From: Acutalibacteraceae bacterium | GTDB lineage: Bacteria > Bacillota > Clostridia > Oscillospirales > Acutalibacteraceae | DNA: 64,000 nt | Direction of reading: 5' to 3' | Assembly: GCA_045606785.1 (NCBI GenBank) | Contig: JAZUSN010000017.1 | Span: forward strand, 187 to 64,186 | Shown: piece by piece, positions 36,507-55,901 of the stretch | How the letters are laid out: each line of letters starts with the position of its first letter | Position numbering within the stretch: position 1 is the stretch's first letter | The notes under the pieces: generated by a model | Told to the model about the DNA's origin: nothing | The model's database searches: none | What the model saw: only the letters and a program-made list of their open reading frames with translations | Position numbers and translations under genes: made by a program

Positions 36507-36568
36507 ACTATCCCTCTGTTCTGTTAGTATTATATGCTTGTGTTAAATTAGAGACAAATCACCATTGG

Positions 36569-36676
36569 CTCCCTCTGACGAGGGAGTTGTCAGCGAAGCT
36601 GACTGAGGGAGAGAAAACTGCCCCTCCGTCAAAACTGCGTTTTGCCACCTCCCCTGACAAGTGGAGGCTGTTTTTT
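36569..36676. repeat. Hairpin-repeat module cluster 3
   Basis: CTCCCTctgacgAGGGAG, GTCAGCgaaGCTGAC and TGAGGGAGAGAAAA. These are followed by CCCCTCCGTCAAAACTGCGTTTTGCCACCTCCCCTGACAAGTGGAGGCTG, which resembles 35386..35436. Confidence 0.75.
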
Positions 36677-36687
36677 GAATACACAGA

Positions 36688-37236: not shown

Positions 37237-37395
37237 CGCCTATATCTCCTGACGGTCATTCCCAAGGTATGACAGCTATTCCTGCCTTACCCTACTTTTT
37301 ATAGGGTAAGGCTATATTCGTCCCTATTCCACCTCAACCATATCATAAAAAAATCTTTACTTCAAGAAGGAATAGGCAGTTTCATCGCTCGTTTT

Positions 37396-38346: not shown

Positions 38347-38394
38347 TATTTTTTACCTCATCATAAAAATATCAAATGTTGCATTGTACTTATA

Positions 38395-39363
38395 TCATTC
38401 GTTGCTCTCGGCTCTGTGAGTTCCGTAATCCGGGTTACCGAACAAAGCTTTGAAAAAATCCGACACATACTCAAAAGAGTTTATCATTATAGCACCGCCG
38501 CCAACAGTACCCATACCGGGCACAATAATAAAAGCCAACAAACCCAATAAAAAATCTTTCGGAAATTCTTTCAAATTTCTTGTTGCAATTTTACGCTCTT
38601 TTTTAACTGCAACTTCTTCCGAAACAACTTCTATTGTCATTTCTTCTGTAAACACACCGTCCAAGTTTAACTGTATTACATATTTTCCGGGTTCTTCGGG
38701 AGTAAAACTATCCGAATCAATTTCTACTGTTTTTCCGTTTACCGTATACGAAAAAGTTGCTTCTTCAAGCCAACCCTTTCCGTAACCGCCGTTGCCGCCC
38801 TCGATTGATACCTCGATCGGTTTGCCGACTATTCCACAATAATTTATTATTCTCTCTTCAGAATCAGTCGGTTCTTCAGAAAACGCAACATAATTATATC
38901 GGCATCTAATATAAAAATTATTTGCATCTTTTACTCTTGAAGCGGGAATAACTAACTTTAAACTTTTATCTCCGTCAGCCGTTGCAAAAGCTCCGGCTGA
39001 AACTTCAACGCCCAGAATTTCCTCACAAAAATCCGTATTGATAATTATCTGTGGATAATGGAAATTGTTTTTCTCAAAAATCCTAATTTGGATTTTTTCT
39101 TCACTGACTTCAATATTTTCCGTAATTTGAGCATTTTCAGATGACCGAGTCTGAACAGTTATTTTCGGAATGTCACCTGACACTGAATATTTATTAGAGT
39201 AAGTTATAACAACCGTATCAAAATCAGAATAGTAATCACAACTGTAGGTTTTCTCAAGTTCTTCTGTCTGTGCGTCCTCCGCCGCAAAAGCTACGCTTGC
39301 TGTAGTGAAAAGAAGCACCGCACAAAGAATTACGGACATGATTCTCTTAAACTTTTTGTTCAT
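38395..39363 (-). CDS. Secreted protein with C-terminal TM region and FFKALFG tail
   Basis: Signal peptide MNKKFKRIMSVILCAVLLFTTASVAFAAED. C-terminus FLLGLLAFIIVPGMGTVGGGAIMINSFEYVSDFFKALFGNPDYG.... Confidence 0.75.
   Translation of the reverse strand: MNKKFKRIMSVILCAVLLFTTASVAFAAEDAQTEELEKTYSCDYYSDFDTVVITYSNKYSVSGDIPKITVQTRSSENAQITENIEVSEEKIQIRIFEKNNFHYPQIIINTDFCEEILGVEVSAGAFATADGDKSLKLVIPASRVKDANNFYIRCRYNYVAFSEEPTDSEERIINYCGIVGKPIEVSIEGGNGGYGKGWLEEATFSYTVNGKTVEIDSDSFTPEEPGKYVIQLNLDGVFTEEMTIEVVSEEVAVKKERKIATRNLKEFPKDFLLGLLAFIIVPGMGTVGGGAIMINSFEYVSDFFKALFGNPDYGTHRAESNE
39276..39363 (-). repeat. 88-bp signal-peptide cassette, copy B
   Basis: See 38259..38346. The offset between copies is 1017 bp. 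Confidence 0.85.
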
Positions 39364-39393
39364 TTTTTCACCTGCTTCAATTAAAATTTTCGG

Positions 39394-39969
39394 TTATTTG
39401 CCGCCCAAATGCTCCAAAAGGAAGCCGGCAATTGCATCAAATACTTTGGGGCTTGTTTTCGGAAAAAGAGCTGACAGAAAACCTGCAGACAAGAAAGTAG
39501 AAAAAATGCCAAACATACTGAAAGATGCTATAATACCTTCAAAAAAGAGTTCGACCCTCTCGGTGAAAGGAACAGGCTCCAATATACGTATTTCGATAGT
39601 ATCGATAGCCATTATATTACCGTCAGTATCAAGAATCTGAAACCCTATGAAACAGCTTCCGTATGAAACAGCCTTAACCTCAGCCCCGCTGACCCCGCCT
39701 TTATCATCCGGAATAAAATTAACCTCACAACACTCGCCGTTTGCATAGTATTTTATTTCAAACGGCTCATCTGTCGGCGGGCACCAATCAATCTCAACAT
39801 AAGTTGTCTGCCCTATTTTCATATCCTTCCTCAAATTGGCAAAGCTTGCATCAACAGAAACATACGGCGGTTCTTTTTTGTCTGCAGCTGTTGAACTGAG
39901 CGGAAAAGCTGCCGCCAAAAGCAAAACGCACAACAAAACAGACAAAACCTTTTTTGATTTTTTTAACAT
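39394..39969 (-). CDS. Secreted Ig-like protein with C-terminal hydrophobic anchor
   Basis: Signal peptide MLKKSKKVLSVLLCVLLLAAAFPLSSTAAD. FIGFQILDTDGNIMAIDTIEI resembles TVTAKIIDANGNVIATDEL of the 37396 product. C-terminus IIASFSMFGIFSTFLSAGFLSALF.... Confidence 0.75.
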   Translation of the reverse strand: MLKKSKKVLSVLLCVLLLAAAFPLSSTAADKKEPPYVSVDASFANLRKDMKIGQTTYVEIDWCPPTDEPFEIKYYANGECCEVNFIPDDKGGVSGAEVKAVSYGSCFIGFQILDTDGNIMAIDTIEIRILEPVPFTERVELFFEGIIASFSMFGIFSTFLSAGFLSALFPKTSPKVFDAIAGFLLEHLGGK

Positions 39970-40188
39970 ATATATTTACCTCCCTTTTTGCTTTTGTTCG
40001 CTCCCTTTAAACGAACGATTAAATTACTCCGTATCCATATTATACCAATAAAAAGTTGATTATTCAATATTTCGTTTCATTTTATTAAAAGTTTGTTAAT
40101 AAGTTACAAATTTATTCATAATATTTCTAATAATAAACTTTTATTAAGAGGCTTTTAAATATTTTTTAATTTTAGTTGCCCGTAAATT

Positions 40189-40581: not shown

Positions 40582-42126
40582 TTATTTCTTGTACTCCTTG
40601 AAATCTGCATAGATTTCTTCGGTGTAAACGTTGTTTTCGTCCTTATCGTGGAGCGGATACCAAACCTGAGCGAAGAAGGGGTTAACCTTTGCTTCGTCAT
40701 CGTATGCCCAGCGGAACTTCTTCTGCTCAGCCTTCTCGAGTGATGAGGGAAGCTCTTCGGGGCACCAGTGACCGCCGCGGAGAACAAGGTTCGGGCTCAT
40801 CATAAACTTATGGCCGTGTGCACATTCCCACTCAACGGGTGTGTACATATCAACGATCTCAGTTGCAAGGCACTTACCGCCACGGAACTCAGCAGCCTTC
40901 TGAAGATCCTCAAGAGTGAGTGAATCGAAGGGCTTGGACTCGTCATAACCGTGATCGAGAACAAGAGCCTTTGCAGGATCATCGTTGGGACGGTAGACCT
41001 TAACCTTGCTCCAATCAGAGCCGATTGCGTTCCACTTCTCAAGAGAGCCGACGTAAGCATTGATTCTGGGAGCAACCTTATTCTCTCTCCACCAGAGTGT
41101 ACCGTAAACGGGAGTCTTGGCAATCTTCTTCATAAAGGGCTTAACAGCAAATGAGAAGGGCTTTGCAAGGAATGCAAGCTTGTAGAACCACTCTACCCTA
41201 TCCATCATGCTCTTGAAGTATTCCTCAATGGGAGTGTTTGCACGGAAGTGGAGATAGCTCTCGAGAACATCGGAGTCGAGATACCACTGACCGTGGAAGT
41301 TACGTGTGATGAACCAATCGGGATCGAAGAGCTTCTTGGGATCGCCAAGGCCGAGACCGCACTTGCCGAGAAGAAGCTGCTCGAACTCCATATTTGTGAT
41401 TCTGTACTGAGCACCGGAACCGATGTTGTAGAATCGTCTCCAGAATTCCTCAGGAACATCGTCGCCACAGACGTTTACAAGGAGGCGACCTGAATCCTCA
41501 ACTGTTGCCCACTCAAGAACACCGTTGATAACAACGTGATACATGATAGGCTCCATATTCTTGAGAATTTCGGGATAAAGGATGCCTGACTGACGAAGAG
41601 ATACCCAATACTTAAGACCTGACTCTGCAAAAACAGACTCAGCAATAACCTTACTTGTTGCATAGTGGTCGTAAACGCTGATTTTGATGGGGTCGCCTGT
41701 ACGTGCCCAATGGATAGGATCGTCACGCTCACCTGTTTCAGCAACTGTACCTATGTAAACAACCTTAACAGCATCGGGATCGGGCTGTGCCTTGACAGCC
41801 TTAACGATATTCTGTGCAGCAGATACGTTTGTTTTGATAGTTGCAATGGGAAGATAGTCTGCAGAAGGAGAAACCATACCGCCGACGTGAAGGACGTAGT
41901 CGGAACCTGTGACACACTCGAGTACGCTATCGTACTTCTTGAGATCGCCCCAGACAATTCTGACAGAATCGTCATTCATATAATCCTTGAACTTTTCTCT
42001 GTTTTTCTCGCTGTCACGAAGAAGAACAACAATGTTGAACTTATCCTTCTTTGCATACAGCTGCTTGAAACCTTCCCAACCCATGTTGCCCGAAGCACCG
42101 GTCAGGAATACCGTTTTTTTGCTCAT
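40582..42126 (-). CDS. NAD(P)-binding SDR / epimerase-dehydratase-like protein with about 200-aa C-terminal extension
   Basis: VFLTGASGNMGWEG Rossmann motif and a YxxxK-like YATSK. The C-terminal part contains WECAHGHKFMMSPNLVLRGGHWCPE. AGGAGG RBS. Confidence 0.75.
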   Translation of the reverse strand: MSKKTVFLTGASGNMGWEGFKQLYAKKDKFNIVVLLRDSEKNREKFKDYMNDDSVRIVWGDLKKYDSVLECVTGSDYVLHVGGMVSPSADYLPIATIKTNVSAAQNIVKAVKAQPDPDAVKVVYIGTVAETGERDDPIHWARTGDPIKISVYDHYATSKVIAESVFAESGLKYWVSLRQSGILYPEILKNMEPIMYHVVINGVLEWATVEDSGRLLVNVCGDDVPEEFWRRFYNIGSGAQYRITNMEFEQLLLGKCGLGLGDPKKLFDPDWFITRNFHGQWYLDSDVLESYLHFRANTPIEEYFKSMMDRVEWFYKLAFLAKPFSFAVKPFMKKIAKTPVYGTLWWRENKVAPRINAYVGSLEKWNAIGSDWSKVKVYRPNDDPAKALVLDHGYDESKPFDSLTLEDLQKAAEFRGGKCLATEIVDMYTPVEWECAHGHKFMMSPNLVLRGGHWCPEELPSSLEKAEQKKFRWAYDDEAKVNPFFAQVWYPLHDKDENNVYTEEIYADFKEYKK

Positions 42127-42217
42127 ACCGCATTTGCCTCCTATTTTATGTTACTTTAAATCTACCATACTTCAACAAAAATTTCAATACAAATCTTCAT
42201 ATTATTAGCTTTAAGAC

Positions 42218-42751
42218 TTACTTTTTTTCGCAAACAGCAAAAAGAAAACCGTTATGCTCACCAACCGTGAAGCCGTAATCCTCATTGCTTGATCTTATCG
42301 GATTTTCGAGAGCATAAAACTCAATGGATTTGGCGTTATCCGCAAAGCCTGTACCAATTGCTTTGAGGTAACTCTCCTTGAGCGTCCAAAGGGTAAAAAA
42401 GGCTTTGTCTTCATTCTCTGCGTTATCTATCAAAGATATCTCGCCCTCGGTAAAAATACGCGATTCGACCGATTTGCGACGTTTTGAGCACAGCTCAACA
42501 TCAACTCCTGTTTCCCTGTCGGAAATGCCGCACATAGCTGTGCCCTTGCTGTGGCTGAGGCTGATAAAAATATCATTTCTGCCATCAATGTAGGGCTTGC
42601 CCTTTGCGTCTTTGAGTATAGTTATTTCATTCTCCGGGATGCAAAGCTTATCCGACAGAGCACGCTTGAGCAGATTATGTGCCGCCTCACTCATTTTTCT
42701 GTAACTATCTTCTATTGAATCAGCGAAAAAGATTTGGGTCAAAGCTATCAC
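42218..42751 (-). CDS. Sfp-type 4'-phosphopantetheinyl transferase (short form)
   Basis: FISLSHSKGTAMCGIS...GVDVE and FTLWTLKESYLKAIGTG are PPTase motifs. The start is uncertain: GTG at 42751, or TTG at 42742 behind AAGGTGA. Confidence 0.8.
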   Translation of the reverse strand: MIALTQIFFADSIEDSYRKMSEAAHNLLKRALSDKLCIPENEITILKDAKGKPYIDGRNDIFISLSHSKGTAMCGISDRETGVDVELCSKRRKSVESRIFTEGEISLIDNAENEDKAFFTLWTLKESYLKAIGTGFADNAKSIEFYALENPIRSSNEDYGFTVGEHNGFLFAVCEKK

Positions 42752-42755
42752 CTTT

Positions 42756-42793
42756 TTTCAAAAAATGCCGCCCGGGGTTTAGCCGGACGGCAT
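42756..42793 (-). terminator. Rho-independent terminator after the dockerin-protein gene
   Basis: ATGCCGTCCGG / CCGGGCGGCAT stem (one mismatch) followed by a T-run on the minus strand. Confidence 0.8.
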
Positions 42794-42812
42794 CTCGTGT
42801 TTTGGGAATTAT

Positions 42813-45800
42813 TCATGCAGTTGCAATCTGGTTAACTACCTGCTTGAGAAGTGCAGCGTCGTTAAGAAGAACTGCGTCTGCAGCATCAATAACACCGTCG
42901 TGGTTCGGGTCAGCAGCCATCTTCTCGTATTCGTTGAGACTGTTTGCCGAAAGAAGACCGTTATTGATCATTGTAACAAGGAATGAGTCGTTAGCATCGG
43001 TTGTACCGTTGCCGTCAAGGTCACCGTAGATGATTACGGTGTACTCAAGTCTGCAGGTTGTGCCATCCATAACCTTGATAACAGAACCTGTACCAAGTAC
43101 GGAATCCTCACACTGAATAGTACCTGTGCCGATAACCTCTGCATAGTAAGTCTTGAATGTGTCGAGTGTAAGCTCTTCAGCAAGACCGTAAACTATTCTC
43201 TTCTTTGTTTCAACAACTGTTGTTGAACCGTCTACGGGAGCAAGCTCACAGTCTGTTGTTGCAATGTCGAGAGAAACGAATGCGTTGGAAACGTCGGGAA
43301 CAAGGTTAACTGTATCAAGCTTGTATGCTGTACCGTTTTTAGTTACGCAAGCAACTGATGTGGGAACAGAATTTGCACTGTTTGTGGGAGACTTACAAAT
43401 TCTCTCATCAATGAAGATAAGACCGTCTGTAACAGCAGCATCAATACCTGTGTTAACAGTAAGCTTGAGTGTGAATACGTGTGTCTTCTCGTTTACGATA
43501 ACAGGAGCCTTCGCGCTTGTTGTTGCGAAGTTACCTGTAGTAATACGGGTACACTTGATATTATCGGGATTAAGCGGAACGTTATCCTCAAACTTGCTTG
43601 CCCAGTTAGTAGCAGAATAGTTTGTAGAACCTGACAAAGTTGTAGCTGCAAGTGATTTAATATAATCGGAAGTTGTGTTTGCAACAGTTGCATTTCTGAC
43701 GTTACCGGCAACTGTAAATACACGGTTATCAAACATAATACCGAAGATACCCTGGCCTGCATAGTAGTTTGTCTTTATGCTTACTTCAACCTCGATAGCG
43801 TCGCCTTCCTTGATGGATGTAGCGGGTACACGCTTGCCGTTGATTGTCTTGTAAACGTCGAGATAATAGTTACAGACTGTGTTAAGAGTCCAGACAGCTT
43901 CAACCGTAAGATTACCTGAAGGCATTGTCTTAAGGTCATAGGGCTGGCCGTTGAGAGTCCAACCGTCGAAGAGGTAGTTCTCCTTAGTGGGAGCTTCAAT
44001 GGAGATAGGTGTGCCGTAAGGAGCTGTGATAGCGTCGATTGCTGTGCCGCCGTCTGTATCAAAGTAAAGTGTGTATGTGTTTACACTGTACTGAGCATAG
44101 AGAGTGTGATGTGCATCAAGCTCTACAGGAACAGCTGATGTAACCTGATCGCCACCCTCGGGCTGTGTGAACCAGCCGATAAATGTGTGACCGTCCTTCT
44201 CGGGTGTGGGAAGCGGACCGTAGGTTGAGCCGTATGTTACGGAGTAAGCAGGTGTTGAAACCACGCCGTTCTCACCGGGATCAAGAGTGATGTCATATAC
44301 CTTCTCTGTCCAACCTGCGTAAACAAGCACTTCAGCATCCGAATCACCAAGGTCAGGCATTGTTGTGTATGATGCGGGCTGTGTGCAAGCAGTATCGTAA
44401 TACCAGCCTGTGAACGTATAGCCGTATCTTGTGGGAACAGGCATTTCGATTGCATCACCGTATTTAGCTGTAATAGCTTCACATGCTGAACCGAGACCTG
44501 AATCGAAGCGGAATGTGTAGCTTTCAACGTCACTCCAATGTGCGTAGAGATTCTCTACGTAGTTGATTGTAACGATGGTATCAGCAACGATCTGCTCGCC
44601 GCCTGTAGCATCGGAGAACCAACCGAGGAATGTATGACCGTCTCTTGTTGCAACGGGAAGCTCGCCGTACTCTACACCGTAGGTAAGCTCTTTGGATGTA
44701 ACATCAACAGAGCCACCGTTGGGATTAAAGTATGCATAGTAAGTAACGGGTGTGTAAGTGAAAGTTACTGTCTGCTCATCAGCAGAAAGTGTAACGGTCT
44801 GATACTGCTCTGTGGGCTCATAACCGGGATGAACGGGAGCAGTTACACGAACGACATATGTTCTTGTGCCGTCGTATGTCTGTGAACTGAGTACACGGTA
44901 GCCGCCGGCATAGCTTGCGTCCGGAGTCTGAGCGACGACTGTGTAACGTGCAGTCTTGAGAGTAAGACCGTCGATTGCGCTCTGGATAGAAGCAGCCATC
45001 TGATCAACCGCCGTCTGCCTGCTTGCAGGAAGATCATACTGAACAAGTGCGATAGCATTTGTAACATCGACGAATGAGTTATAGTTATCGGGATTAAGCT
45101 CGTTGACATATGCAACAAGTGCATAGATCTGAGAGTAATCTGCATAGGCACTTACAAGTGTATTAACTGCAAGCTCAATATTTTCGATAGCACGACTAAC
45201 TCTTGTCTGAGTAGCACTGGGATTAGCGAAAACTTCGAAAGCATTCTTGATAACAGAAACGTATGTTGTGAAGCCGCCGCTGTAATCAAATGCCTGCCTG
45301 TTCTTAGCCATTTCTCTTGCGAGAAGCGCACCAAGCTCATTCTTAACAGCTACGTGTTCGCCATCAGCTGAAGTGAGCACATAAACATATGTTGTGTAGG
45401 CTACGCCCAAGCACTCATATGTGATTTTGGCAGTAATTACGCTGCCTGTAGCACCTGTAGAAGTGATAGTTGCTGTATAGTAGCCATCATCCTGAAGTGC
45501 AAAATTTGATGAGATAACTGCGTTTTCAAGCTCAACAGCAATGTTTGTAAGCTCATTGGACGCAGCATCTTTGATTTGGATAACCGTGCTCTGACTGACA
45601 TTAACCGTACTTGCAGAACGGATATCAAGAGCAGATGCATAGTTAGTGTTGATAACTGTAAGACCTGCTTCAGCAGCAGCAAGAGCTGTTACTGCGTTGG
45701 CCTTTTCTTCTGCTGTGGCAGAAGTGTTGCTATTGACAAAAGTAGCGTTAGCAAGCGCTGCGGAATAGACAGCATATGATTCAGGTGTATATCTTGCTTC

Positions 45801-45947
45801 CGGGAAGGAATCATGATTATTGATCATATACTGAAGAACCGAAGCTGTGTAGCTTGCGGCATCAGCGACGATGCCGCAAGCGAGAGTACTAAATACAAGT
45901 GTCAATGCAATAAGAAAGCTTGTTAATCTTTTAAGTTTCATTTGCAT
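42813..45947 (-). CDS. Secreted multidomain protein: FIVAR-like helical repeats, Listeria-Bacteroides (Flg_new) repeats, beta domains, C-terminal type-I dockerin
   Basis: Signal peptide. Helical repeats such as YTPESYAVYSAALANA. Four repeats ending GHTFLGWF / GYTFTGWY / GHTFIGWF / NYLFDGW. Dockerin duplicated Ca-binding loops DLDGNGTTDANDSFLV and DPNHDGVIDAADAVLL. Confidence 0.85.
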   Translation of the reverse strand: MQMKLKRLTSFLIALTLVFSTLACGIVADAASYTASVLQYMINNHDSFPEARYTPESYAVYSAALANATFVNSNTSATAEEKANAVTALAAAEAGLTVINTNYASALDIRSASTVNVSQSTVIQIKDAASNELTNIAVELENAVISSNFALQDDGYYTATITSTGATGSVITAKITYECLGVAYTTYVYVLTSADGEHVAVKNELGALLAREMAKNRQAFDYSGGFTTYVSVIKNAFEVFANPSATQTRVSRAIENIELAVNTLVSAYADYSQIYALVAYVNELNPDNYNSFVDVTNAIALVQYDLPASRQTAVDQMAASIQSAIDGLTLKTARYTVVAQTPDASYAGGYRVLSSQTYDGTRTYVVRVTAPVHPGYEPTEQYQTVTLSADEQTVTFTYTPVTYYAYFNPNGGSVDVTSKELTYGVEYGELPVATRDGHTFLGWFSDATGGEQIVADTIVTINYVENLYAHWSDVESYTFRFDSGLGSACEAITAKYGDAIEMPVPTRYGYTFTGWYYDTACTQPASYTTMPDLGDSDAEVLVYAGWTEKVYDITLDPGENGVVSTPAYSVTYGSTYGPLPTPEKDGHTFIGWFTQPEGGDQVTSAVPVELDAHHTLYAQYSVNTYTLYFDTDGGTAIDAITAPYGTPISIEAPTKENYLFDGWTLNGQPYDLKTMPSGNLTVEAVWTLNTVCNYYLDVYKTINGKRVPATSIKEGDAIEVEVSIKTNYYAGQGIFGIMFDNRVFTVAGNVRNATVANTTSDYIKSLAATTLSGSTNYSATNWASKFEDNVPLNPDNIKCTRITTGNFATTSAKAPVIVNEKTHVFTLKLTVNTGIDAAVTDGLIFIDERICKSPTNSANSVPTSVACVTKNGTAYKLDTVNLVPDVSNAFVSLDIATTDCELAPVDGSTTVVETKKRIVYGLAEELTLDTFKTYYAEVIGTGTIQCEDSVLGTGSVIKVMDGTTCRLEYTVIIYGDLDGNGTTDANDSFLVTMINNGLLSANSLNEYEKMAADPNHDGVIDAADAVLLNDAALLKQVVNQIATA

Positions 45948-45988
45948 ATTCCCCTATTACACGAGTAAATTTTTAGTAAGTTGGTTGC

Positions 45989-48900
45989 TTAGCCGATTCC
46001 CAGTACGTTGGATACAAAGAATCCGAAGATACGGCTTAAGAATGCCATAATCTGCTGGAAGAATGACTGCTCAACAGGCTGCTGTTCTGTGGGCGGTGTT
46101 ACGCCTGTATCTACATCAGCGCCGGAGTTTGTTTCTGTGTCGTTGGTTGTAACTCTTGACCAGCGAGCGTAAAGAGTTGAGTAGTAAAGTGTTGTAACCT
46201 TAACTGTCTCGTCAACCTTAATACCGCCGGAAAGCTTGTTGTACCAGCCGACAAACTCGAAACCGTTACGTGTGGGAACAGGAAGGTCAGCATATGTGCT
46301 ACCGTATGCAACGTTTGCTGTTACGGGATCAACCGTACCGCCGTTTGCGTTGAGTGTTACTCTGTAAACATCGGGTGCATAGTTAAACTCAACAACAACG
46401 CCGCCCTTTGTGATAGTAACGAGCTTTGCCTTATCTGTTGACTTATAGCCCATGATTTCGGGAACGTTAACAATAACCTTTTCACCGATATCACCGTAAA
46501 TAGTGTCTGTGCTGAGAAGGATAACCTGCGGAACCTCGTTGCCATCCTCATCGATTACTGTTGCGGGATGAAGAATGCCGGAATTGTCGTAGCAACGGAT
46601 GATGATACGATCCTGTGCGGGCTCAAGGTTATCAATAGCTGCCTGGAGGTTGTCAATAATCTCGTTAACGAGTGACTGCTGAAGAACATCCTGTGAGAAG
46701 TCAATGCTCTTAAGGATATCTGTAACAGGGCTGAAATCCTGATAATCTTCAGGATTGAGTGAATTTGCAATAGAGATGAGCTTGTGAAGCTCTTCGAAAT
46801 CAGCTGACTTGTACTCAAGCCAATCGATTGCTTCAAGAAGGTTGATGTTAGCCTCATCGATCTGAGCCTGTGTAACCATCGGGTTGTTGAGGACTGCAAC
46901 CGCTGCCTCAAGATCCTTCTTGTAGATATCCCAACCGCCTGAATAGAACCAATCTTGACGGCAAGAAGAGATAGCTGCATCAACTGTAGCGCGAAGCTGG
47001 CTCTTATCGTAAGCAATGACACGAAGGTAGAACTTCGGAGCGGAGTTTGTCTGACCGCCGTTTGTTGCTATAGCTGTAACTGTGGGAGTGATAAGAGTTG
47101 TAGCAGTCTCGCCTGCTGCGGGAAGATTACCGGAGAATGTGAAGTTTCTGGAATCATCCTGGTTGAGTGTTACACCGTAGGAAGACGGCTCAACAACAAC
47201 GTTGGGATCGGAGCTTGTAACGTCAACATTGATAGATGAGAAAACACCGGAACCGATATTACCTGCAGAATAAGAATCTGCCATCTTGGTAAACGTAAAC
47301 ATAAGACCGGGAATCTCTTGGTAGTATCTGTAGATACTGCGGTCTGCGTAAACCGTACCCATGGGAACAGTTGCAAGATCGCCTGCGTAACCAGACCAGT
47401 TGTGATCTACGTGGTAGTTAAGAACACCGCTGTAGTCTGTGGACTGGATTCCGTATACACCTAAATGATACTTATTACGGATGTAGCCGGGGTAGCATGT
47501 ATTAACGTCAAAGTTGATTTCGTAGTCGCCTGCAGATACGAACGTGTAAGCATATGCTGTGTATTCCATACCTGTTGAGGGCTGAGTAAATTTGATCGTA
47601 GCTGTGATTACTGAATAAAGGGTTGCAGCAGCAGGGTTAATCTCCCAGCAGTAGTAATCGCCTTCTTCATACATCTGGCCAATCGTTGCGCCGCCGTTTA
47701 CAGTTGCAGATACGTTAGTGATAGCTGCGCCTGTGGACTCACGGAACTTAAGGACAGTCGTTGTATCTCTGGAAACAACGTCATCGATAATGACTTCTGA
47801 ACCGAGCTCGTAGTTAAGCTCCCAGAATTCAAGGCTGTTGAGAGCTGTACCGAGTCTTTCAGATACTCCGTCAACGATGTACTGATCATCAAGGTCGTAG
47901 TCACGGTCAATTGCAAGAGCCTCAGCATAAGCTGCTTTGAACTCTGCGATAGAGTGTGTGGTATAGAGTCTATAATCCTCTTCGGGGATAGCTTCAGCTC
48001 TCTTTATCATAACATCAAGAACGTTATAGCGCGCAAGAGAGATGTAAGCCTTAAGTCTGTTCTGTGACTTGAAGAGCTCCTGTCTTGCGATAGAAATCGC
48101 AGACTGTTTAGCATTAGGATCTGCTGCTACCTTATAAGCGTTTGCAAGTGCTTCGCTGTAAAGTCTCCATGATCTGTCAGTATAGACCTTGTTGCCTGCG
48201 CCGTCATCGTTTGCTTTAGCGTTGTTTGCCTCTGCATAGTTGATCTCGTAAGCAAGCTGGATCTTACAGGTCTCTGATCTGGGAGTCATCTCATCGTAGT
48301 AGTAGCCGAGTCTGTAGTAAAGGTTTTTAATCTCAAGAGCTGTAACGGAGTTCGGATTTTCGTTATATCTCTCTACGAGACTTACACAGTCTGAATATGT
48401 GTCGTCAAAGTTGGTGAACTCGAAGAGGTATTCGTAATCCTCTTCGCCGTATGTGAAGTAGCCGTCATCACTGTATGACAGGCCATCGTTTGACGGCATA
48501 TACTGCTGCATGAGCGTCTGAAGGTCTCTCATAGTCTTATTGGGATAACCAACGGGAGCGTTAACTGTAAAGTTATCGTTCTGGCTGAGACCGATGAGTG
48601 AACCGATAAGCGGAATAAGTGTCGGGAAGTTGTAATCTCTTTCTGAGTAAAGAGCAGAGAGAAGGTTACCTGCAAACTGGCCGAGCTTGCCGCCCTTTGT
48701 TGAGCCGTAAACAAGATCCTCAAGGTTCTGTGTGCTTGCGGGGATGATCTCAAGGCCGTTCATAAGGCTTGAAAGGATACCGCCGAGAAGGTCGAGAACA
48801 AAGTTTACAACGGGCTGATTGAGGATAGCATCGGGAGAGGAGTTCTTACCGATGAAGCTGAGGATCTTCTCAATATTGAGTGTCTGAACACCGTCAAGAA

Positions 48901-50623
48901 TTGCGCCGACGATAAGGGACTCGGATACTGTATCGTGAGTCTTCTGAATCGTAGTGAGCGTGGGATCGAGAAGTGTGAAGATTGTAGCATCAAGCTTCTC
49001 CCAACCTGTCATACCTGCAAGGTTCTGTCTTGTGTTGAAGATGAAGCCGAACTCTGCAACAAGCCAGCTAGCAAGGCAATCAACCATCTCGTCGAAGCTT
49101 GCATCGAATGGAATGTTGATATCGATGAGTGAATTGAGGAGGTAGATGAGGTAATCAGTACCGATTTCAATCCAAGCACCGTTTTCGGGATCAAGTGTAC
49201 CGTCTTCGATCATGCCGTAGTAGTCATTCTCGGGAAGAAGGTCAATAACAAGGCTGATGAGTATATAAGTAAGACATTCCTGAATAGTATCGCAATCGGG
49301 AAGGAATCTGACGCCTGCGAAGAAGTCGATACCGGGAGCTATAAGCATAATGATGTAGGAAATGAACTGATCAGTTGTCCACTCCGTCATATCCGGGAAC
49401 TCCGCATCCTCGGGGATAACCTCGGGAAGAAGCATCTGAAGGAGACCGGGGCCAAGCTCACGGAGAAGGCTAACGATATTTGCATAAAGCTCATCGTTGA
49501 TATCAATACCGTGATCTGTGAAAGCGATAATGCTGTAAAGAGCAGCAGGCTTCTTGATAACGTTACCTGCATCATCCGTTACAGTCTCACCTGCAAGGAG
49601 CCATGTAAGGGCTTTTTCAAGCTCGATTACAGGGTACTCTTCTGCATCGTAGGGATAGCCGAGACCAAGGTAGTCGTTGATGATACCGATAATTGTGGGA
49701 AGAAGACCGGGCTCTGCAGGATTACCGTAGGGCCACTCTTCGCTTACTTCGATATCCAGAGTATCGGGAAGTGACTCAACAAGTGTGGGAACAAGGATGT
49801 CAACCATAAGTGAGTCGATAGCGTTCTGGATAAGGTCGTAAGTAGAGCCTGATGTGATAGAGGTCTTGCCTGCCATGCTGGGCAGGAAGCCGGAGTAAGA
49901 CTGAGTTGAAACGTTGTAATCGCCGATAAGGAGCTGATCAACAACATCCTGAAGCAAACCGTCGATAGTAAATGAATCAATGGTGACACCGGCGGGAAGA
50001 GTATCGATCTCAGGCTCTGACTCTGCTTTGAGAAGGCTGTTATATATCAATGTATATATCATTTCCTTAAGGAAAGCAGGTATGTGATACAGGAAGCCCA
50101 TATCCGGATCATCAGGCGGAATAACGAGCTCCATAATGCCGCCGAAATCAATCGTACCGTTTACAAGCTTCTCAAGTGTGGGTCTGTTGTCGCTGAGAAA
50201 CTCAAGAAGAGCATAGAAGACTTCGGAGTCTTTATGTGTTTTTCTTCTGGGCTCAACAATCGCAGACTCATCAAGGTCCTTGAGGTCACCGACAAGGCTG
50301 AGACCCTGTGCAAAGTTGACCAGACCCATATCGAGAAGGTCTGAAATTGACTGGAATGTGTTATCAACTGAAGTAAGGTTGATTCTGATAGTACCTAAGA
50401 TACTAAGGTCAATCTCCTCGTTGATATTGGCATCGTACAGCACTGTATCCAGGAAGTCGAGCAACATTGAGCAGGACTGCTCATATGTATAGTACGGCTT
50501 ACCCAGGCTGTCGTAGCCGGCGGGTGATGTGTACGCCTCATAAGCTGAAGCTGTGCTTGCCATTGACGTCGCAAGCATAACAGCAGCCAGGAGGATACAC
50601 ATCAGCTTTTTGACTTTTTTCAT
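45989..50623 (-). CDS. Giant (1544 aa) secreted protein: about 870-aa unrecognised helical N-terminal region, FIVAR-like repeats, one Flg_new repeat, T/P linker, amphipathic C-terminal tail
   Basis: Start chosen at MKKVKKLMCILLAAVMLATSMASTASA (ATG 50623, GGAGGTG RBS) rather than the ORF-track start at 50791. Flg_new repeat ...NGFEFVGWYNKLSGG. The tail is SFFQQIMAFLSRIFGFFVSNVLGIG. Confidence 0.85.
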   Translation of the reverse strand: MKKVKKLMCILLAAVMLATSMASTASAYEAYTSPAGYDSLGKPYYTYEQSCSMLLDFLDTVLYDANINEEIDLSILGTIRINLTSVDNTFQSISDLLDMGLVNFAQGLSLVGDLKDLDESAIVEPRRKTHKDSEVFYALLEFLSDNRPTLEKLVNGTIDFGGIMELVIPPDDPDMGFLYHIPAFLKEMIYTLIYNSLLKAESEPEIDTLPAGVTIDSFTIDGLLQDVVDQLLIGDYNVSTQSYSGFLPSMAGKTSITSGSTYDLIQNAIDSLMVDILVPTLVESLPDTLDIEVSEEWPYGNPAEPGLLPTIIGIINDYLGLGYPYDAEEYPVIELEKALTWLLAGETVTDDAGNVIKKPAALYSIIAFTDHGIDINDELYANIVSLLRELGPGLLQMLLPEVIPEDAEFPDMTEWTTDQFISYIIMLIAPGIDFFAGVRFLPDCDTIQECLTYILISLVIDLLPENDYYGMIEDGTLDPENGAWIEIGTDYLIYLLNSLIDINIPFDASFDEMVDCLASWLVAEFGFIFNTRQNLAGMTGWEKLDATIFTLLDPTLTTIQKTHDTVSESLIVGAILDGVQTLNIEKILSFIGKNSSPDAILNQPVVNFVLDLLGGILSSLMNGLEIIPASTQNLEDLVYGSTKGGKLGQFAGNLLSALYSERDYNFPTLIPLIGSLIGLSQNDNFTVNAPVGYPNKTMRDLQTLMQQYMPSNDGLSYSDDGYFTYGEEDYEYLFEFTNFDDTYSDCVSLVERYNENPNSVTALEIKNLYYRLGYYYDEMTPRSETCKIQLAYEINYAEANNAKANDDGAGNKVYTDRSWRLYSEALANAYKVAADPNAKQSAISIARQELFKSQNRLKAYISLARYNVLDVMIKRAEAIPEEDYRLYTTHSIAEFKAAYAEALAIDRDYDLDDQYIVDGVSERLGTALNSLEFWELNYELGSEVIIDDVVSRDTTTVLKFRESTGAAITNVSATVNGGATIGQMYEEGDYYCWEINPAAATLYSVITATIKFTQPSTGMEYTAYAYTFVSAGDYEINFDVNTCYPGYIRNKYHLGVYGIQSTDYSGVLNYHVDHNWSGYAGDLATVPMGTVYADRSIYRYYQEIPGLMFTFTKMADSYSAGNIGSGVFSSINVDVTSSDPNVVVEPSSYGVTLNQDDSRNFTFSGNLPAAGETATTLITPTVTAIATNGGQTNSAPKFYLRVIAYDKSQLRATVDAAISSCRQDWFYSGGWDIYKKDLEAAVAVLNNPMVTQAQIDEANINLLEAIDWLEYKSADFEELHKLISIANSLNPEDYQDFSPVTDILKSIDFSQDVLQQSLVNEIIDNLQAAIDNLEPAQDRIIIRCYDNSGILHPATVIDEDGNEVPQVILLSTDTIYGDIGEKVIVNVPEIMGYKSTDKAKLVTITKGGVVVEFNYAPDVYRVTLNANGGTVDPVTANVAYGSTYADLPVPTRNGFEFVGWYNKLSGGIKVDETVKVTTLYYSTLYARWSRVTTNDTETNSGADVDTGVTPPTEQQPVEQSFFQQIMAFLSRIFGFFVSNVLGIG

Positions 50624-50911
50624 AAAAAAGCACCTCCATAGATTTTGCTGGTTTGCGTCGGGCAGGAATGCCTCTATGTACAAACTAATAGCAAATACCG
50701 ATACCACTAGGTATACAGTTATACTATTATGCATAGTGATTGTATCATAAGATTTATGCAAATGCAAGTTAAATAGCAATAAAAAAATCAAATTTTTTAC
50801 AAAAAATTGTACATTGTGTTAAGTTAGAATTATCATTACCACAAAATATAGTAATCTGTCGGAATACAGACACATTTCATTTCATCCAAGCTGTTACAAA
50901 TCACTAACGTC

Positions 50912-50933
50912 ACAAGTGTGTTAACACACTTGT
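50912..50933. promoter_or_regulatory. Perfect 22-bp palindrome (candidate operator) upstream of the sORF
   Basis: ACAAGTGTGTTAACACACTTGT, checked as its own reverse complement. It overlaps a TTGTCA -35-like hexamer about 70 nt before the sORF start. Confidence 0.45.
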
Positions 50934-51001
50934 CAAATCCGACTAAATATGTTACCATTGTTTAAATGCATATTACATTAAATGATAAGGAGTGACCAAA
51001 C

Positions 51002-51178
51002 GTGAAAAAAGCTATTGCATACCTAACATCCGCAGCTATTGTTTTATCTGCAACCGCCATCCCATCTTTGGCCGCAACGGTTGACCTGCCACCGGAGTTT
51101 GCAAGCCTCACACCGATTCTTGAAATCGTACTTAAGATTGTAGAGTTCCTTTCAAAAATTATCGGCTTTTTCAGCTGA
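51002..51178 (+). CDS. Unannotated 58-aa secreted peptide with amphipathic C-terminal helix
   Basis: Below the ORF-track cutoff. AAGGAG lies 8 nt upstream of GTG 51002. The translation is VKKAIAYLTSAAIVLSATAIPSLAATVDLPPEFASLTPILEIVLKIVEFLSKIIGFFS. It has a signal peptide with an AxA-like site (SLA-A), a stop at 51176-78, and a strong terminator follows. Confidence 0.65.
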   Translation: MKKAIAYLTSAAIVLSATAIPSLAATVDLPPEFASLTPILEIVLKIVEFLSKIIGFFS

Positions 51179-51193
51179 TGTATAAAGAGAACG

Positions 51194-51229
51194 AAAAGAG
51201 GATGTCTCGCGCAGAGACATCCTCTTTTT
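51194..51229. terminator. Bidirectional rho-independent terminator
   Basis: AAAAGAGGATGTCTC / GAGACATCCTCTTTT is a 15-bp perfect stem. Confidence 0.9.
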
Positions 51230-51248
51230 ATTGTTTTGAAGTTTAAGA

Positions 51249-52829
51249 TCAATCTTTTTTATCGCTGTTTTCCGAAACAGCCTTCTGTGCAGCCTTAACC
51301 TTGTCGAGTGACTCCGCATCACCCTGAGTAACCTCAGAGGTCATCAATGCACGGCGGGCAAGCAGCTCTTCGTACATCTTATCGCGCTTTTTACCCGTAA
51401 GATCGTAGAACAGAAGCGGAATAATACCGAGTGTTGTTGTGATAATGGGAAGGACGGTACACATAGCAAACAACCAGAACTTTGTTGAGTCAGTCTGAGC
51501 AGAACCGCTTGTGTAAGCGTTGATATCATAGCCGATCCACTTTTTAAACATCGTCTTAACAGCACCGCTGAGTACGCCTGCAAGCTTCTGCGCAAGGCCC
51601 TTTGCAGCTGAGGTCATAGCCTCTGTGCGGTAGCCATTCTTCCACTCGCAGTAGTCCATAGCTTCGTTGTACATTTCACTGGGGATAACGTTACGAAGGC
51701 CGTAGAAGAACATATATACGGTTTCCTGAAGTGCAAAAGCAATACCCATAGGAACTACCTTCTTGTAAAGGCCGTTCTTTTTGCCGCCTATGCAGCCGAA
51801 CAGGAATACGGGAATATACGTAATATCAATACTGTACTTACCAAGGATAGCAAGCGCACGTGTTGACATTTTCTTACGGAACCACGGAACAAGTGCATAA
51901 GAGAACGGGTGGACGATTGCGCCGGGGATACCAACGACCGTGCCGAGAGTAGCAAAGTTGAGAACGTCAATGAAGTAATCCTTCTTACTGCCGCTGAGAA
52001 GCGAGAAGCTGCTGAGCGTATCTGAAAGAGTGAGAAGAAGAATAGGCTTATTGTTGATGATTGACTTAACGCCTTCTTTGATACTAGGTGTTTCAATCGA
52101 CTGCATAACGCGCTCTTTTGTGATTGAAGCAAACCAAAGTGCTGCGATACCGCTGACAAGCGAAGTAAATACACCCATGCCCATAAATACAGAACGATAA
52201 GCTTTTTCGTAGCTACCTTTAGCAACGATCTGGTTACCGATAAGGTCAAGGACAACGTCCATTATCTGTTGGGGTAACTTCTCACCGAGGAAGCCCGAGA
52301 AGAACTGAGCCTGCGTAATCAGTCGCGTTCGTTCCAATGGGTTTGGTGTTATGGTTGCGAGCATACCCGTCTGTGCAAAGCCACGGAAAGTGCCGCCCGT
52401 TTCTCGCAGAAGTGCAAGAAGAAGGTAGAAGAAAAACTTTGCCATTGAATCGCCGGCCGCACTCGGGAAGAGCGCAGGCATAAGCCAATAAAGGCAGGTT
52501 GCGATCGTGCCGGGAATACCGAGAACGATAAGGTAGGGCTTGAACTTACCCCAACGGGTACGCGTTTTATCAACTATAGCACCCGAAAAGGTATCATTCA
52601 CAACGTCCCATATACCGTTTATGAAATTAGCTATTGTCTGAAGCTCCAGATTAAGTTTGAAGATCGTGGTAATGAAACGCTCGGAATATGTATTGATATT
52701 AAAGCTTTGGGCCATATCAAATATTACATAACCGACAGTTTCTTTAGTACCGACGTAACGTCTGTTTTGCTTGGCGTAAAAGTCTTCGGTGTACTGCGGT
52801 GCATCAGCCGCTTTTGTCTTTTCTGCCAA
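51249..52829 (-). CDS. GPH-family (MelB-like) glycoside/pentoside/hexuronide:cation symporter
   Basis: DVVNDTFSGAIVDKTRTRWGKFKPYLIVLGIPG is the GPH signature, with about 12 TM segments. The start is proposed at TTG 52829, 8 nt after AAGGAGG. The ORF-track ATG at 52949 would add 40 aa. A hydrophilic C-terminal tail of about 55 aa is present. Confidence 0.8.
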   Translation of the reverse strand: MAEKTKAADAPQYTEDFYAKQNRRYVGTKETVGYVIFDMAQSFNINTYSERFITTIFKLNLELQTIANFINGIWDVVNDTFSGAIVDKTRTRWGKFKPYLIVLGIPGTIATCLYWLMPALFPSAAGDSMAKFFFYLLLALLRETGGTFRGFAQTGMLATITPNPLERTRLITQAQFFSGFLGEKLPQQIMDVVLDLIGNQIVAKGSYEKAYRSVFMGMGVFTSLVSGIAALWFASITKERVMQSIETPSIKEGVKSIINNKPILLLTLSDTLSSFSLLSGSKKDYFIDVLNFATLGTVVGIPGAIVHPFSYALVPWFRKKMSTRALAILGKYSIDITYIPVFLFGCIGGKKNGLYKKVVPMGIAFALQETVYMFFYGLRNVIPSEMYNEAMDYCEWKNGYRTEAMTSAAKGLAQKLAGVLSGAVKTMFKKWIGYDINAYTSGSAQTDSTKFWLFAMCTVLPIITTTLGIIPLLFYDLTGKKRDKMYEELLARRALMTSEVTQGDAESLDKVKAAQKAVSENSDKKD

Positions 52830-53021
52830 AAAACCCGCCTCCTTGTATAAATTCTTGTTGATTATACCATAAAGAACAAATGAAATCAAGATAACATTCA
52901 CGCAAACGGAAGAAAATAATTGTAAAATTTTTTTAATAATTATCTTCAAGCAAATAGGAATCTCATTTTATATCTGCTGTGTGCATATGGTTTTAGAAAC
53001 AGATATAAAGGAGACGAATAT

Positions 53022-55219: not shown

Positions 55220-55402
55220 ATGAAATACAATCACAGCGAAGAAAAGCGTTCGAAGCTGTCAAACAACGAAATTGAAGATGACGTATTTGATATGGTAAAC
55301 AAATACGGTACGTATAACATTCAGCCGACAAACGACACGGATAACACATTCCCTGCAATTGCACAGGGGCTTGCAAAAAAGCACCGCAGAAAACACAAAT
55401 AA
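55220..55402 (+). CDS. Small hydrophilic protein, function unknown
   Basis: 60 aa: MKYNHSEEKRSKLSNNEIEDDVFDMVNKYGTYNIQPTNDTDNTFPAIAQGLAKKHRRKHK. GGGTGA RBS and a downstream hairpin. No family recognised. Confidence 0.5.
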   Translation: MKYNHSEEKRSKLSNNEIEDDVFDMVNKYGTYNIQPTNDTDNTFPAIAQGLAKKHRRKHK

Positions 55403-55457: not shown

Positions 55458-55607
55458 TTATGCAGAAATCATACCGATAAGATCCTTAACAGCAGCGACA
55501 ATCTTATCAACGATGCCGGACTCCTGAATCTTAGTTACGATCTCCTTAACTGTTGCGATAACCTCTTCCCAGTTGATCTCCTTGAGCATTTCCATGATCT
55601 GATCCAT
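55458..55607 (-). CDS. Leaderless 49-aa acidic amphipathic peptide (paralog 1)
   Basis: MDQIMEMLKEINWEEVIATVKEIVTKIQESGIVDKIVAAVKDLIGMISA. GGAGGTGAAA RBS. The internal ATG at 55607 is preferred over the ORF-track start at 55673. Confidence 0.7.
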   Translation of the reverse strand: MDQIMEMLKEINWEEVIATVKEIVTKIQESGIVDKIVAAVKDLIGMISA

Positions 55608-55763: not shown

Positions 55764-55901
55764 TTATGCAAAGAGACCCTGGAAAAAGCTGATGATTGCC
55801 TCAACAACACCTGAATCCTTAATCATACCTACGATGTCAGCAGCCTTACCTTCGTTAAGGAAGTTAAGAAGCTCCTCTACAAATGCGAGAATCTGATCCA
55901 T
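55764..55901 (-). CDS. Leaderless 45-aa acidic amphipathic peptide (paralog 2)
   Basis: MDQILAFVEELLNFLNEGKAADIVGMIKDSGVVEAIISFFQGLFA. GGAGGTGAAA RBS. An imperfect hairpin plus T-run lies downstream at about 55700..55745. Confidence 0.7.
   Translation of the reverse strand: MDQILAFVEELLNFLNEGKAADIVGMIKDSGVVEAIISFFQGLFA

Follow-up and report, generated by a model that had tools for sequence, protein, structure and literature searches.

C-terminal amphipathic helices on secreted proteins of an Acutalibacteraceae bacterium and a Cys/His-capped module built around one of them

The window analysed here, a stretch of 64,000 nucleotides from contig JAZUSN010000017.1 of an Acutalibacteraceae bacterium (GenBank assembly GCA_045606785.1, positions 187 to 64,186 of the forward strand), raises the question of why secreted proteins of otherwise unrelated sequence end in similar tails. 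Three such proteins were considered, a giant protein (45989..50623), the protein 477..1949 and the product of a small open reading frame (sORF, 51002..51178). We found that the three tails are amphipathic and that the helix of protein 477..1949 forms the centre of a module, flanked by Cys/His clusters at either end, that recurs on over 100 different surface proteins. The reading that we favour, at roughly even chances, is that the tails are C-terminal amphipathic alpha-helices that hold Sec-exported proteins at the cell envelope.

The display of proteins on Gram-positive cells is commonly ascribed to LPXTG motifs and sortase, lipoproteins, transmembrane anchors, or SLH, cell-wall-binding (CWB), LysM, GW and dockerin domains. 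A 2018 review of surface display in monoderm bacteria mentions neither amphipathic nor Cys-rich C-terminal anchors (PMC5817068). In the Acutalibacteraceae, an abundant and uncultured gut family, many surface proteins end in an amphipathic helix, often within the Cys/His module, and these include BspA-type leucine-rich repeat (LRR) proteins, nucleotidases, proteases and lectins.

Three similar tails on secreted proteins

According to the translations of the open reading frames (ORFs), the giant protein ends in ...SFFQQIMAFLSRIFGFFVSNVLGIG, protein 477..1949 in ...GFLGFLWKIANFFSKLFGLNPVCECSAAHY and the sORF product in ...LKIVEFLSKIIGFFS. The tails are present as the initial annotation had described them, and the N-termini of all three proteins are signal-peptide-like, as it had also stated. 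The 12-residue pattern [KQ]I..F[FL]S[KR][IL][FI]G[FL] had just three matches when the full 64 kb were translated in six frames, and the distance from the match to the stop was 2, 9 or 11 residues. Since this pattern was composed after the data had been seen, its significance is overstated. The shared residues are encoded by differing codons (e.g. Ser by AGC or TCA, Leu by TTA or CTT), which indicates that the likeness was selected or maintained at the peptide level and does not stem from a recent DNA copy. Recent duplication or gene conversion as origin of the likeness is ruled out by these differing synonymous sites.

Pairwise comparison with phmmer against 1114 ORFs of the window yielded marginal expectation values (E) of 0.09 for the giant tail against the sORF, 2.4 for the sORF against the giant protein and 0.77 for the helix of protein 477..1949 against the sORF, although each of the three tails was among the top non-self matches of another. 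With a profile of the tails of the giant orthologs, for which the giant tail itself belonged to the training set, the sORF tail was the best non-self match (E=2.5e-5), and the helix of protein 477..1949 was aligned on the helix at E=0.57. A profile restricted to the helix of the Cys/His module recovered the helix of protein 477..1949 at E=1e-10 and, on rank 2, the sORF tail at E=0.035; the giant tail scored E=15. Thus, the claim of one motif on three proteins holds for a recurrent C-terminal amphipathic motif but not for a single homologous family, and these sequence comparisons do not establish that the three window tails share an ancestor. None of the Cys/His positions of the module is present in the giant or sORF tail.

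The proposed amphipathic character was borne out by the calculations. The hydrophobic moment (muH) was 0.45-0.66 for the three tails and 0.45-0.85 over all tails examined, in both cases with z-scores of 2.5-3.5 against shuffled sequences, and AlphaFold2 predicted a helix for the giant tail.

A Cys/His-capped module on protein 477..1949

The motif on protein 477..1949 is real, but it is in fact the central helix of a larger, far more conserved module of 38 residues with Cys and His on both sides. When 1.84 billion representative proteins were searched with a profile of five tails, we obtained 122 matches at E<=1e-3, and 113 of them contained one gap-free C-terminal 38-mer. The consensus of the module reads C-[SD]-H-[LMI]-C-H-K-x-G-[FI]-[ML]-G-F-[IF]-W-K-I-[VI]-x-F-F-x-K-L-F-[KG]-x-N-P-V-C-E-C-G-A-A-H-Y-COOH. 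Membership was defined by the gap-free pattern C-x-[HC]-x-C-H-x2-G-x2-G-x2-W-K-I-x2-F-F-x-K-L-F-x2-N-P-x-C-x-C-G-x2-H-Y, which protein 477..1949 follows with Ser for Gly at position -5 (counted from the C-terminus) as its deviation. A family profile built without sequences of the window matched its tail over positions 1-38 (73.5 bits, E=7e-22), and this tail is the sole copy of the module in the window. Orthologs of the protein are P0035 and the copy at locus L075.

In carriers that otherwise show no relationship or share less than 50% identity, about 20 of the 38 positions hardly vary. Cys-38, Cys-34, His-33, Cys-8, Cys-6 and His-2 vary little or not at all, and conserved residues of the helix are W-24 (94%), F-19 and F-18 (91-98%), F-14 (100%), K-23 (93%) and K-16 (90%). 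In 180 unique tails, position -36 was occupied by His (157) or Cys (23) and by no other residue, an exchange of the kind expected of a metal ligand. Cys at this position (CxCxCH) is weakly coupled to a Glu to Ala exchange at -7 (corrected mutual information, MIp, 0.15), and this coupling is possibly phylogenetic. Judging from these residues, the clusters C-x-[H/C]-x-C-H and C-x-C-G-x-x-H-Y-COOH are most likely binding sites for zinc or another metal. Differences at synonymous sites approach saturation (44% of the codons for identical residues differ, and 39-50% do so between paralogs in one genome), and the module is therefore conserved by purifying selection, not by gene conversion. AlphaFold2, run with an alignment of five sequences, predicted only the central helix, with a mean predicted local distance difference test score (pLDDT) of 64 and an uninformative Cys/His geometry. 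Kyte-Doolittle values of 0.9-1.1 make the module too polar for a transmembrane segment.

Neither Pfam nor NCBIfam contains a model for the module, a sequence search of the PDB returned only a chance fragment of a ryanodine receptor (E=0.29), and a literature search by sequence strings and by concept found no description of it. The Cys/His-capped module thus appears to be an undescribed variant and is, in our view, the most interesting result. Other readings of its motifs were rejected. C-D-H-L-C-H is unlikely to be a CX3CH heme-binding site, since position -36 can be Cys, the carriers are exported by the Sec route in Clostridia, and they show no other cytochrome-like feature; for a CAAX-like prenylation box and for a reversed sortase motif (NPxC) the order of the motifs is unsuited. 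Divergent subtypes were also seen: two to five extra residues after HY (L039, L073), the ending QQYCDCGITHW (L077), an insertion (L043) or a deletion (L055/L086) in the helix, and a subfamily CH[SF][DE]N[WA]F without GxxG.

To map the distribution of the module, a set of 185,579 genomes, one per species, was scanned with a DNA pattern for N-P-x-C-x-C-G-x-x-H-Y that specified no stop. Among the matches listed, 121 were to this motif and 110 were full modules. A stop codon followed directly after 108 of these 110 copies and after none of 10 non-module matches, which were chance matches in unrelated taxa (Vibrio, Priestia, Bacteroidia and others); the anticipated enrichment at the C-terminus is thereby confirmed for the module. 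Within the same set, the hosts of the real copies were gut metagenome-assembled genomes (MAGs), the majority labelled Acutalibacteraceae and others 'Clostridia bacterium' (ruminant gut), Oscillospiraceae, Ruminococcus sp., Eubacteriales or Ca. Fimenecus. The suspected clade specificity holds to the extent that the module copies among the matches listed all come from Acutalibacteraceae-like gut MAGs. Single genomes carry several copies (at least 7 in JAZLAJ01, at least 6 in JAZUOC01). No module was found in 2.9 million viral contigs, so that there is no link to phages.

The carriers range from 55 to 2433 residues and most begin with MKK. A signal-peptide-like N-terminus was present in 66 of 70 complete module ORFs, in line with the expected co-occurrence with signal peptides. 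When 62 module proteins were compared with Pfam, 37 contained BspA-type LRR_5 repeats; other passengers were Metallophos/5'-nucleotidase, DUF6273, transglutaminase, CotH, lectins, papain, A2M, aerolysin, cohesin and M26. Matches to the LPXTG anchor, SLH, cell-wall-binding repeat or dockerin models were absent from all 62. Gram_pos_anchor matched neither these proteins nor those of the window, whose tails have no LPXTG-like motif, and PEP-CTERM, GlyGly-CTERM and other curated sorting domains of NCBIfam/TIGRFAM were absent from the families reported for the window proteins and from those listed for the 62 module proteins; the statement that the tails do not resemble known sorting signals thus stands for the curated models. 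The NCBIfam matches of the 5'-nucleotidase carriers include two models of LPXTG-anchored nucleotidases, with the match confined to the passenger, and this indicates that the module sits where LPXTG sits elsewhere. For the co-occurring gene of a candidate sorting enzyme that the initial annotation had suggested looking for, no co-located candidate emerged: there was no recurrent partner gene in about 100 module loci, the best non-carrier family occurring in 8, and no sORF relatives were found near module genes.

Many carriers (e.g. P0018, P0065, P0117, P0123) contain, upstream of the module, extracellular repeats of about 30 residues with the pattern H-x9-(P)T-C-x3-G-x5-C-x2-C-G-x11-H. These resemble zinc ribbons, gave only sub-threshold Pfam matches (zf-HIT, Zn_ribbon_SprT, DZR) and are apparently uncurated.

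Table 1. Tail-bearing proteins, their parts and adjoining elements (positions within the window)
Feature	Position	Strand	Description
Secreted protein, 490 aa	477..1949	-	Signal peptide MKKSTKLISMLLAAAMIFAIAPLSAFAAE; passenger fold unassigned; Cys/His module at end
Cys/His-capped helix module, C-terminal 38 aa	480..593	-	CGHACHKGGFLGFLWKIANFFSKLFGLNPVCECSAAHY; family profile match
Module, N-site	576..593	-	C-x-H-x-C-H
Module, amphipathic helix	513..569	-	
Module, C-site	480..512	-	N-P-V-C-E-C-S-A-A-H-Y
Stop codon of 477..1949	477..479	-	
Tail of beta-helix protein 10141..11760	11683..11757	+	FFERIIRLIRNFFETIRHEIAVIFD; cationic amphipathic C-terminal helix after G/T/D/E linker; muH 0.85
VSDFFKALFG near C-terminus of secreted protein 38395..39363	38437..38466	-	muH 0.40; downstream of true hydrophobic segment
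Flg_new-repeat protein with C-terminal dockerin	42813..45947	-	Downstream neighbour of giant gene
Giant secreted protein, 1544 aa	45989..50623	-	Signal peptide MKKVKKLMCILLAAVMLATSMASTASA; FIVAR domain; Flg_new (InlB B-repeat) domain; linker; tail
Giant tail, 25 aa	45992..46066	-	SFFQQIMAFLSRIFGFFVSNVLGIG; C-terminal amphipathic/hydrophobic helix (AlphaFold2, muH, orthologs)
Linker before giant tail	46067..46159	-	SRVTTNDTETNSGADVDTGVTPPTEQQPVEQ; low complexity, T/D/E/P/Q-rich; AlphaFold2 disordered
sORF expression signals	50930..50992	+	Promoter-like TTGTCA-17-TACCAT with extended TG, 50930-50958 (consensus match only); ribosome-binding site AAGGAG, 50987-50992, 9 nt 5' of GTG start
sORF, 58 aa	51002..51178	+	Signal peptide 51002-51076; ATVDLPPEF; amphipathic helix PILEIVLKIVEFLSKIIGFFS, 51113-51175
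Intrinsic-terminator-like hairpin, 16 bp stem	51193..51229	.	Bidirectional; directly 3' of sORF stop, also 3' of convergent MFS_2 transporter gene

Plain tails, the sORF and their surroundings

For the giant protein we found 47 orthologs (46-98% identity), and all 47 keep a tail of 25 residues after an acidic/Thr-rich linker; the tail is thus retained among the orthologs. The low-complexity T/P linker reported ahead of the tail was confirmed. When the last 125 residues were modelled by AlphaFold2 with 17 sequences, a confident Flg_new domain was followed by a linker of pLDDT <50 (residues 77-100) and a lone helix (101-121). The window tail has a muH of 0.51 and a Kyte-Doolittle 19-mer mean of 1.79. 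Its sequence evolves faster than the body of the protein (identity among orthologs 16-68% vs 46-89%), and what is conserved is the presence, the length and the amphipathic periodicity of the tail, not its sequence. Fixed length together with drifting sequence fits a physico-chemical constraint such as lipid contact.

Among orthologs of 87-89% overall identity, two very different versions of the tail occur, a hydrophobic one (...SQLIGLIFSNVFGIG) and a highly charged ('acidic') one (NFFDKIFDFFTKLFEFFKTKVFNFI, Kyte-Doolittle 0.59). The 19-mer mean reaches 2.16 in giant orthologs, and many tails could pass as a transmembrane segment. The objection that the tail might be an ordinary transmembrane segment with no sequence conservation therefore applies to the giant protein in part; the charged, non-transmembrane allele FFDKIFDFFTKLFEFFKTKVFNFI (0.59 as well, at the same 87-89% identity) indicates that a membrane-spanning role is not required. 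In distant giant homologs (P0177-P0181) a dockerin takes the place of the tail at the C-terminus. The giant gene and its dockerin-encoding neighbour form a syntenic pair across species, and this neighbour shows that dockerin-based attachment is in use in the organism too. It was the only protein of the window matched by dockerin model PF00404; the tails gave no match.

The surroundings of the giant gene are conserved as well. At 98% DNA identity, the Logan contigs L001 and L002 represent the same species as the window, the syntenic loci L124, L125, L127 and L131 are 76-84% identical to it, and weaker matches extend to L126 and L128. From the MAG series, the dockerins and the host range of the module, the lineage would be that of an uncultured Clostridia bacterium and probably falls within or close to Acutalibacteraceae. 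Gene order is kept over 40582..52949 (loci L124-L131), with MFS_2 transporter, sORF, giant protein, dockerin protein, 4'-phosphopantetheinyl transferase and epimerase, and it spans species whose giant proteins are only 46-89% identical. In L129 and L130 other genes replace the upstream part (transporter and sORF).

The sORF belongs to a family of more than 10 distinct sequences of 58-62 residues, in which a signal peptide is followed by ATV[DE]LPPEF and then by ...PI[LF]E[IF]VLKIVEF[LI][SA]KI..F[FL]. It adjoins the giant gene in eight loci (the window, L001, L002, L124, L125, L126, L128 and L131), with inverted orientation in L126 and L128; L127, L129 and L130 keep the giant tail and have no sORF. 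It is thus a real, conserved and syntenic gene, predicted to encode a small secreted peptide. A homolog search with short tail alignments returned four to five very short proteins; since its word index favours short targets, it served the sORF family and not as a tail survey.

To see how far plain tails extend, the giant-tail profile was run against 684 ORFs from unrelated Acutalibacteraceae loci, 580 of them non-module ORFs. The profile recovered module helices outside its training set and also plain C-terminal tails of proteins with signal peptides, which end in KNFFERLIDLFHRIIDWFRNLFR, AGFFQKLVAFFKSIFGATKIYE or SFWDKIADFFKKIYDYFMSIFSYFDK. It matched 15 of the 580 non-module ORFs, and 8 of these matches end within 15 residues of the C-terminus, compared with 0.88 expected; shuffled ORFs gave 2.4 matches, 0.3 of them C-terminal. 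Hence the predicted C-terminal enrichment extends to plain tails. This clade therefore has a loose class of Phe-rich C-terminal amphipathic helices, of which the module is a sharply defined member or derivative. The only strong match that was not C-terminal lies near the N-terminus of a 309-residue ORF (L067:6384-7313, minus strand; helix TMFEKIIAFFMSIINFFLS, E=2.4e-6), which could reflect a wrongly called start or a helix of this type serving as signal anchor.

The weaker matches listed in the initial annotation fared differently. The tail of the beta-helix protein is strongly amphipathic but gave no profile match, and it appears analogous, not demonstrably homologous. VSDFFKALFG of protein 38395..39363 is present, 13 residues from the stop. 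For the leaderless peptide 55764..55901 the tail ...AIISFFQGLFA is there, with marginal scores against the tail profiles (E 0.07-0.8).

Several neighbouring features were also recorded. The stretch 36000..40000 has a low GC content (38-39%) and a strong negative GC skew, and it may be an acquired island. It holds three paralogous secreted proteins (37396..38346, 38395..39363 and 39394..39969), whose signal peptides are almost the same and whose C-terminal segments are hydrophobic, as well as a lipoprotein-like ORF (36688..37236). Peptide 55764..55901 (minus strand) is adjacent to a second leaderless helical peptide, 55458..55607 (minus strand); they have about 45 and 49 residues, both begin with MDQI, the pair is kept in L003 and it may be bacteriocin-like or modulin-like. 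Beside a DcuC transporter gene lies a conserved 60-residue ORF (55220..55402, plus strand; MKYNHSEEKRSKLS...PAIAQGLAKKHRRKHK), which is also found in L003, L124 and L125. The N-terminus of a 642-residue protein (12977..13060, plus strand; MFTRIIAIIISFFSAVSAPFSQLFSE) is Phe/Ile-rich like the tails.

Possible roles of the tails and comparison with known systems

From the presence, position, amphipathicity, conservation pattern, distribution and passenger diversity of the tails we infer attachment to the membrane or envelope, and, for the module, metal binding and possibly a partner. The outer face of the cytoplasmic membrane would be the most likely site of attachment, by analogy with the last 18 residues of penicillin-binding protein 5 (PBP5) of E. 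coli. An envelope-association helix, as proposed in the initial annotation, is accordingly still the best reading, with a sorting or assembly tag kept as lower-ranked rivals, but 'uncharacterised' is too strong a word for a tail that resembles the PBP5 anchor. Under this model, the N-terminal signal peptide would drive export, the passenger domains would fold extracellularly and the disordered acidic/Thr/Pro-rich linker would serve as spacer. The terminal helix, last out of the translocon, would then partition into the membrane interface via its wide Phe/Ile/Leu face, with the narrow polar stripe (K/R/S/Q/E) pointing outward. Such an anchor may exist in three versions: the plain, fast-evolving tail of the giant protein and similar tails on other secreted proteins of Acutalibacteraceae; the stand-alone peptide of signal peptide plus helix encoded by the sORF, which may sit beside or pair with the giant tail; and the module of fixed length on protein 477..1949, in which a cationic helix would be clamped between the two Cys/His clusters. 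The plain tails would be PBP5-like anchors, a kind already known. The module is under much stronger sequence constraint, which makes a specific fold, oligomer or partner probable in addition.

A number of observations weigh against envelope attachment as the full explanation. All carriers found are MAGs. The helix of the module is conserved on both faces, beyond generic lipid-binding needs, whereas the plain tails drift freely, and the near-invariant ...A-A-H-Y-COOH at the stop points to a partner that reads the free C-terminus. The Cys/His clusters lie at opposite ends of a helix of about 20 residues and hence cannot share a single metal within a monomer; the coupling between them (-36 with -7) is weak and the pLDDT of the module is just 64. 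The likeness to PBP5 is not significant (E=1.1) and may be convergent. Moreover, an anchor at the membrane interface would have to span the thick Gram-positive wall, and the linkers have about 30 residues. An ordinary transmembrane anchor fits less well: with a cut-off mean of >1.6 over about 19 or more residues, the module and the charged giant allele are too polar, the window giant tail (1.79) has no basic residues after the helix, and some orthologs (2.16) pass on hydrophobicity alone.

A possible but rather doubtful alternative is that the module is a sorting or docking tag, read by a partner such as a processing enzyme, a PDZ-type reader of C-termini or a surface receptor. This partner would cleave, modify or hold the protein, and the helix would act as recognition surface or transient stop-transfer, not as final anchor. 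The near-invariance of about 20 positions across unrelated proteins, the fixed length with its stop, the several paralogous carriers per genome, the tight clade distribution, the mutual exclusion with known anchors in the 62 module proteins and the replacement of LPXTG on nucleotidase homologs are all consistent with such a tag. Its two-faced conservation, the invariant ...AAHY end and the Cys/His caps exceed what lipid binding requires, and PEP-CTERM-type signals are recognised in silico by a pattern of this sort. However, no conserved neighbour was found in the module loci, the curated models of sorting signals gave no match, and the architecture is not the classical tripartite one: the helix has too much polar character to span a membrane, no basic cluster follows it and the most conserved part lies after it. 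A broader version, which we put forward tentatively, is that the module represents an unrecognised metal-dependent C-terminal sorting/anchoring system of gut Acutalibacteraceae, with a dedicated partner reading the free ...A-A-H-Y-COOH end and with the plain tails and the sORF as simpler relatives or accessories. Should the module serve as an anchor or sorting tag, a simple rule on sequence would suffice to predict which proteins these bacteria expose at their surface, and the module would offer a candidate handle for surface display or targeting and pose the concrete question of which metal and which partner are involved. A dedicated sorting system would add to the few known ways of monoderm surface display; if the helix only binds lipid, the anchoring principle of PBP5 would be extended to large Gram-positive surface proteins.

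It is unlikely that the helices are mainly elements of assembly or activity. They would then bundle and oligomerise surface proteins, either by pairing of the giant tail and the sORF peptide or by contacts between modules at metal sites shared between molecules, or the free sORF peptide would be a secreted effector like a phenol-soluble modulin or a bacteriocin. Hydrophobic doublets every 3.5 residues create a wide hydrophobic face (e.g. FFDKIFDFFTKLFEFF), the sORF remains next to the giant gene through an inversion of its orientation, its tail heads the non-self matches of the giant-tail profile, and an antiparallel dimer bridged by metal would suit half-sites placed at the two ends of the helix. 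Parallel changes between the two tails (...IIGFFS with ...IFGFFVS in the window, ...IADFFNF with ...LFEFFKTKVFNFI in L124) are still anecdotal, since a metagenome scan for further pairs gave only two contigs of <2 kb; the co-variation comprises only 6-7 pairs and fails in L125, L126 and L131. The three loci with a giant tail and no sORF, the absence of sORF relatives near module genes and the lack of anything nearby that indicates toxicity or immunity genes also argue against these versions.

Least probable is that there is no shared feature at all and that unrelated hydrophobic C-termini (stop-transfer transmembrane segments) look alike through composition and a post hoc pattern: the marginal pairwise values, the E=15 of the giant tail, the transmembrane hydrophobicity of many giant orthologs and the poor conservation of the tail sequence would fit, but the sORF match to the giant-tail profile, the C-terminal enrichment and the untrained module helices found in independent genomes, and the charged alleles speak against it, and for the module, an unquestionably real and non-random family, it is largely refuted.

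In E. coli PBP5, a C-terminal amphipathic helix keeps the exported protein attached on the outer side of the cytoplasmic membrane (PMC2909392). PBP5 is Sec-exported with a cleaved signal peptide and its last ~18-25 residues form an amphipathic helix, and the giant, sORF and 477..1949 tails have the same layout. We took the C-terminal sequence of DacA from the E. coli K-12 genome and found a muH of 0.50 for the PBP5 anchor, comparable to the tails described here. Several of these strongly resemble the DacA end in style (RTFFGKIIDWVMQYVNLFLGFLFK, KNFFERLIDLFHRIIDWFRNLFR, NFFDKIFDFFTKLFEFF, RTFFGKIIDWVMQ..., NFFDKIFDFFTKLF..., KNFFERLIDLFHRIIDWF and, in P0176, RTFFGKIIDWVMQYV...), a likeness that is not significant (E=1.1). 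The giant-tail profile aligned to FFGKIIDY of DacA at the right place, and at E=1.1 homology is not claimed. C-terminal amphipathic anchors are also present in PBP6 and DacD. Such anchors belong to DD-carboxypeptidases of Gram-negative bacteria, whereas the passengers here are adhesin-like proteins and enzymes of monoderm Clostridia with up to 2400 residues, and, unlike the module, they have no Cys/His clusters.

The tripartite signals (LPXTG/sortase, PEP-CTERM/exosortase, GlyGly-CTERM/rhombosortase and PGF-CTERM/archaeosortase) resemble the module in that they are C-terminal, clade-restricted, carried by many passengers with several copies per genome, and composed of a signature motif and a hydrophobic helix. 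The module differs from them in that it has no LPXTG, PEP or GG motif, in that its helix is amphipathic with two conserved Lys and in that the terminal N-P-x-C-x-C-G-x-x-H-Y-COOH takes the place of the basic cluster. Type I dockerins (PF00404) are likewise C-terminal, occur on many passengers and fold in a metal-dependent manner; one is found in the same organism (protein 42813..45947), and in distant giant homologs they hold the same position. However, a dockerin has about 60-70 residues with Ca2+-binding EF-hand-like duplications, Asp/Asn ligands and a cohesin partner, the module has 38 residues with Cys/His and one helix, and there is no sequence similarity between the two. Short amphipathic helices at the lipid interface are also known from the membrane-targeting helices of MinD and FtsA, which act on the cytoplasmic face, and from phenol-soluble modulins and delta-toxin; phenol-soluble modulins have no signal peptide, and no homology to any of these helices was detected. 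The sORF product is similar to a lone amphipathic helix of the phenol-soluble modulin kind, but it is made with a signal peptide and the segment ATVDLPPEF.

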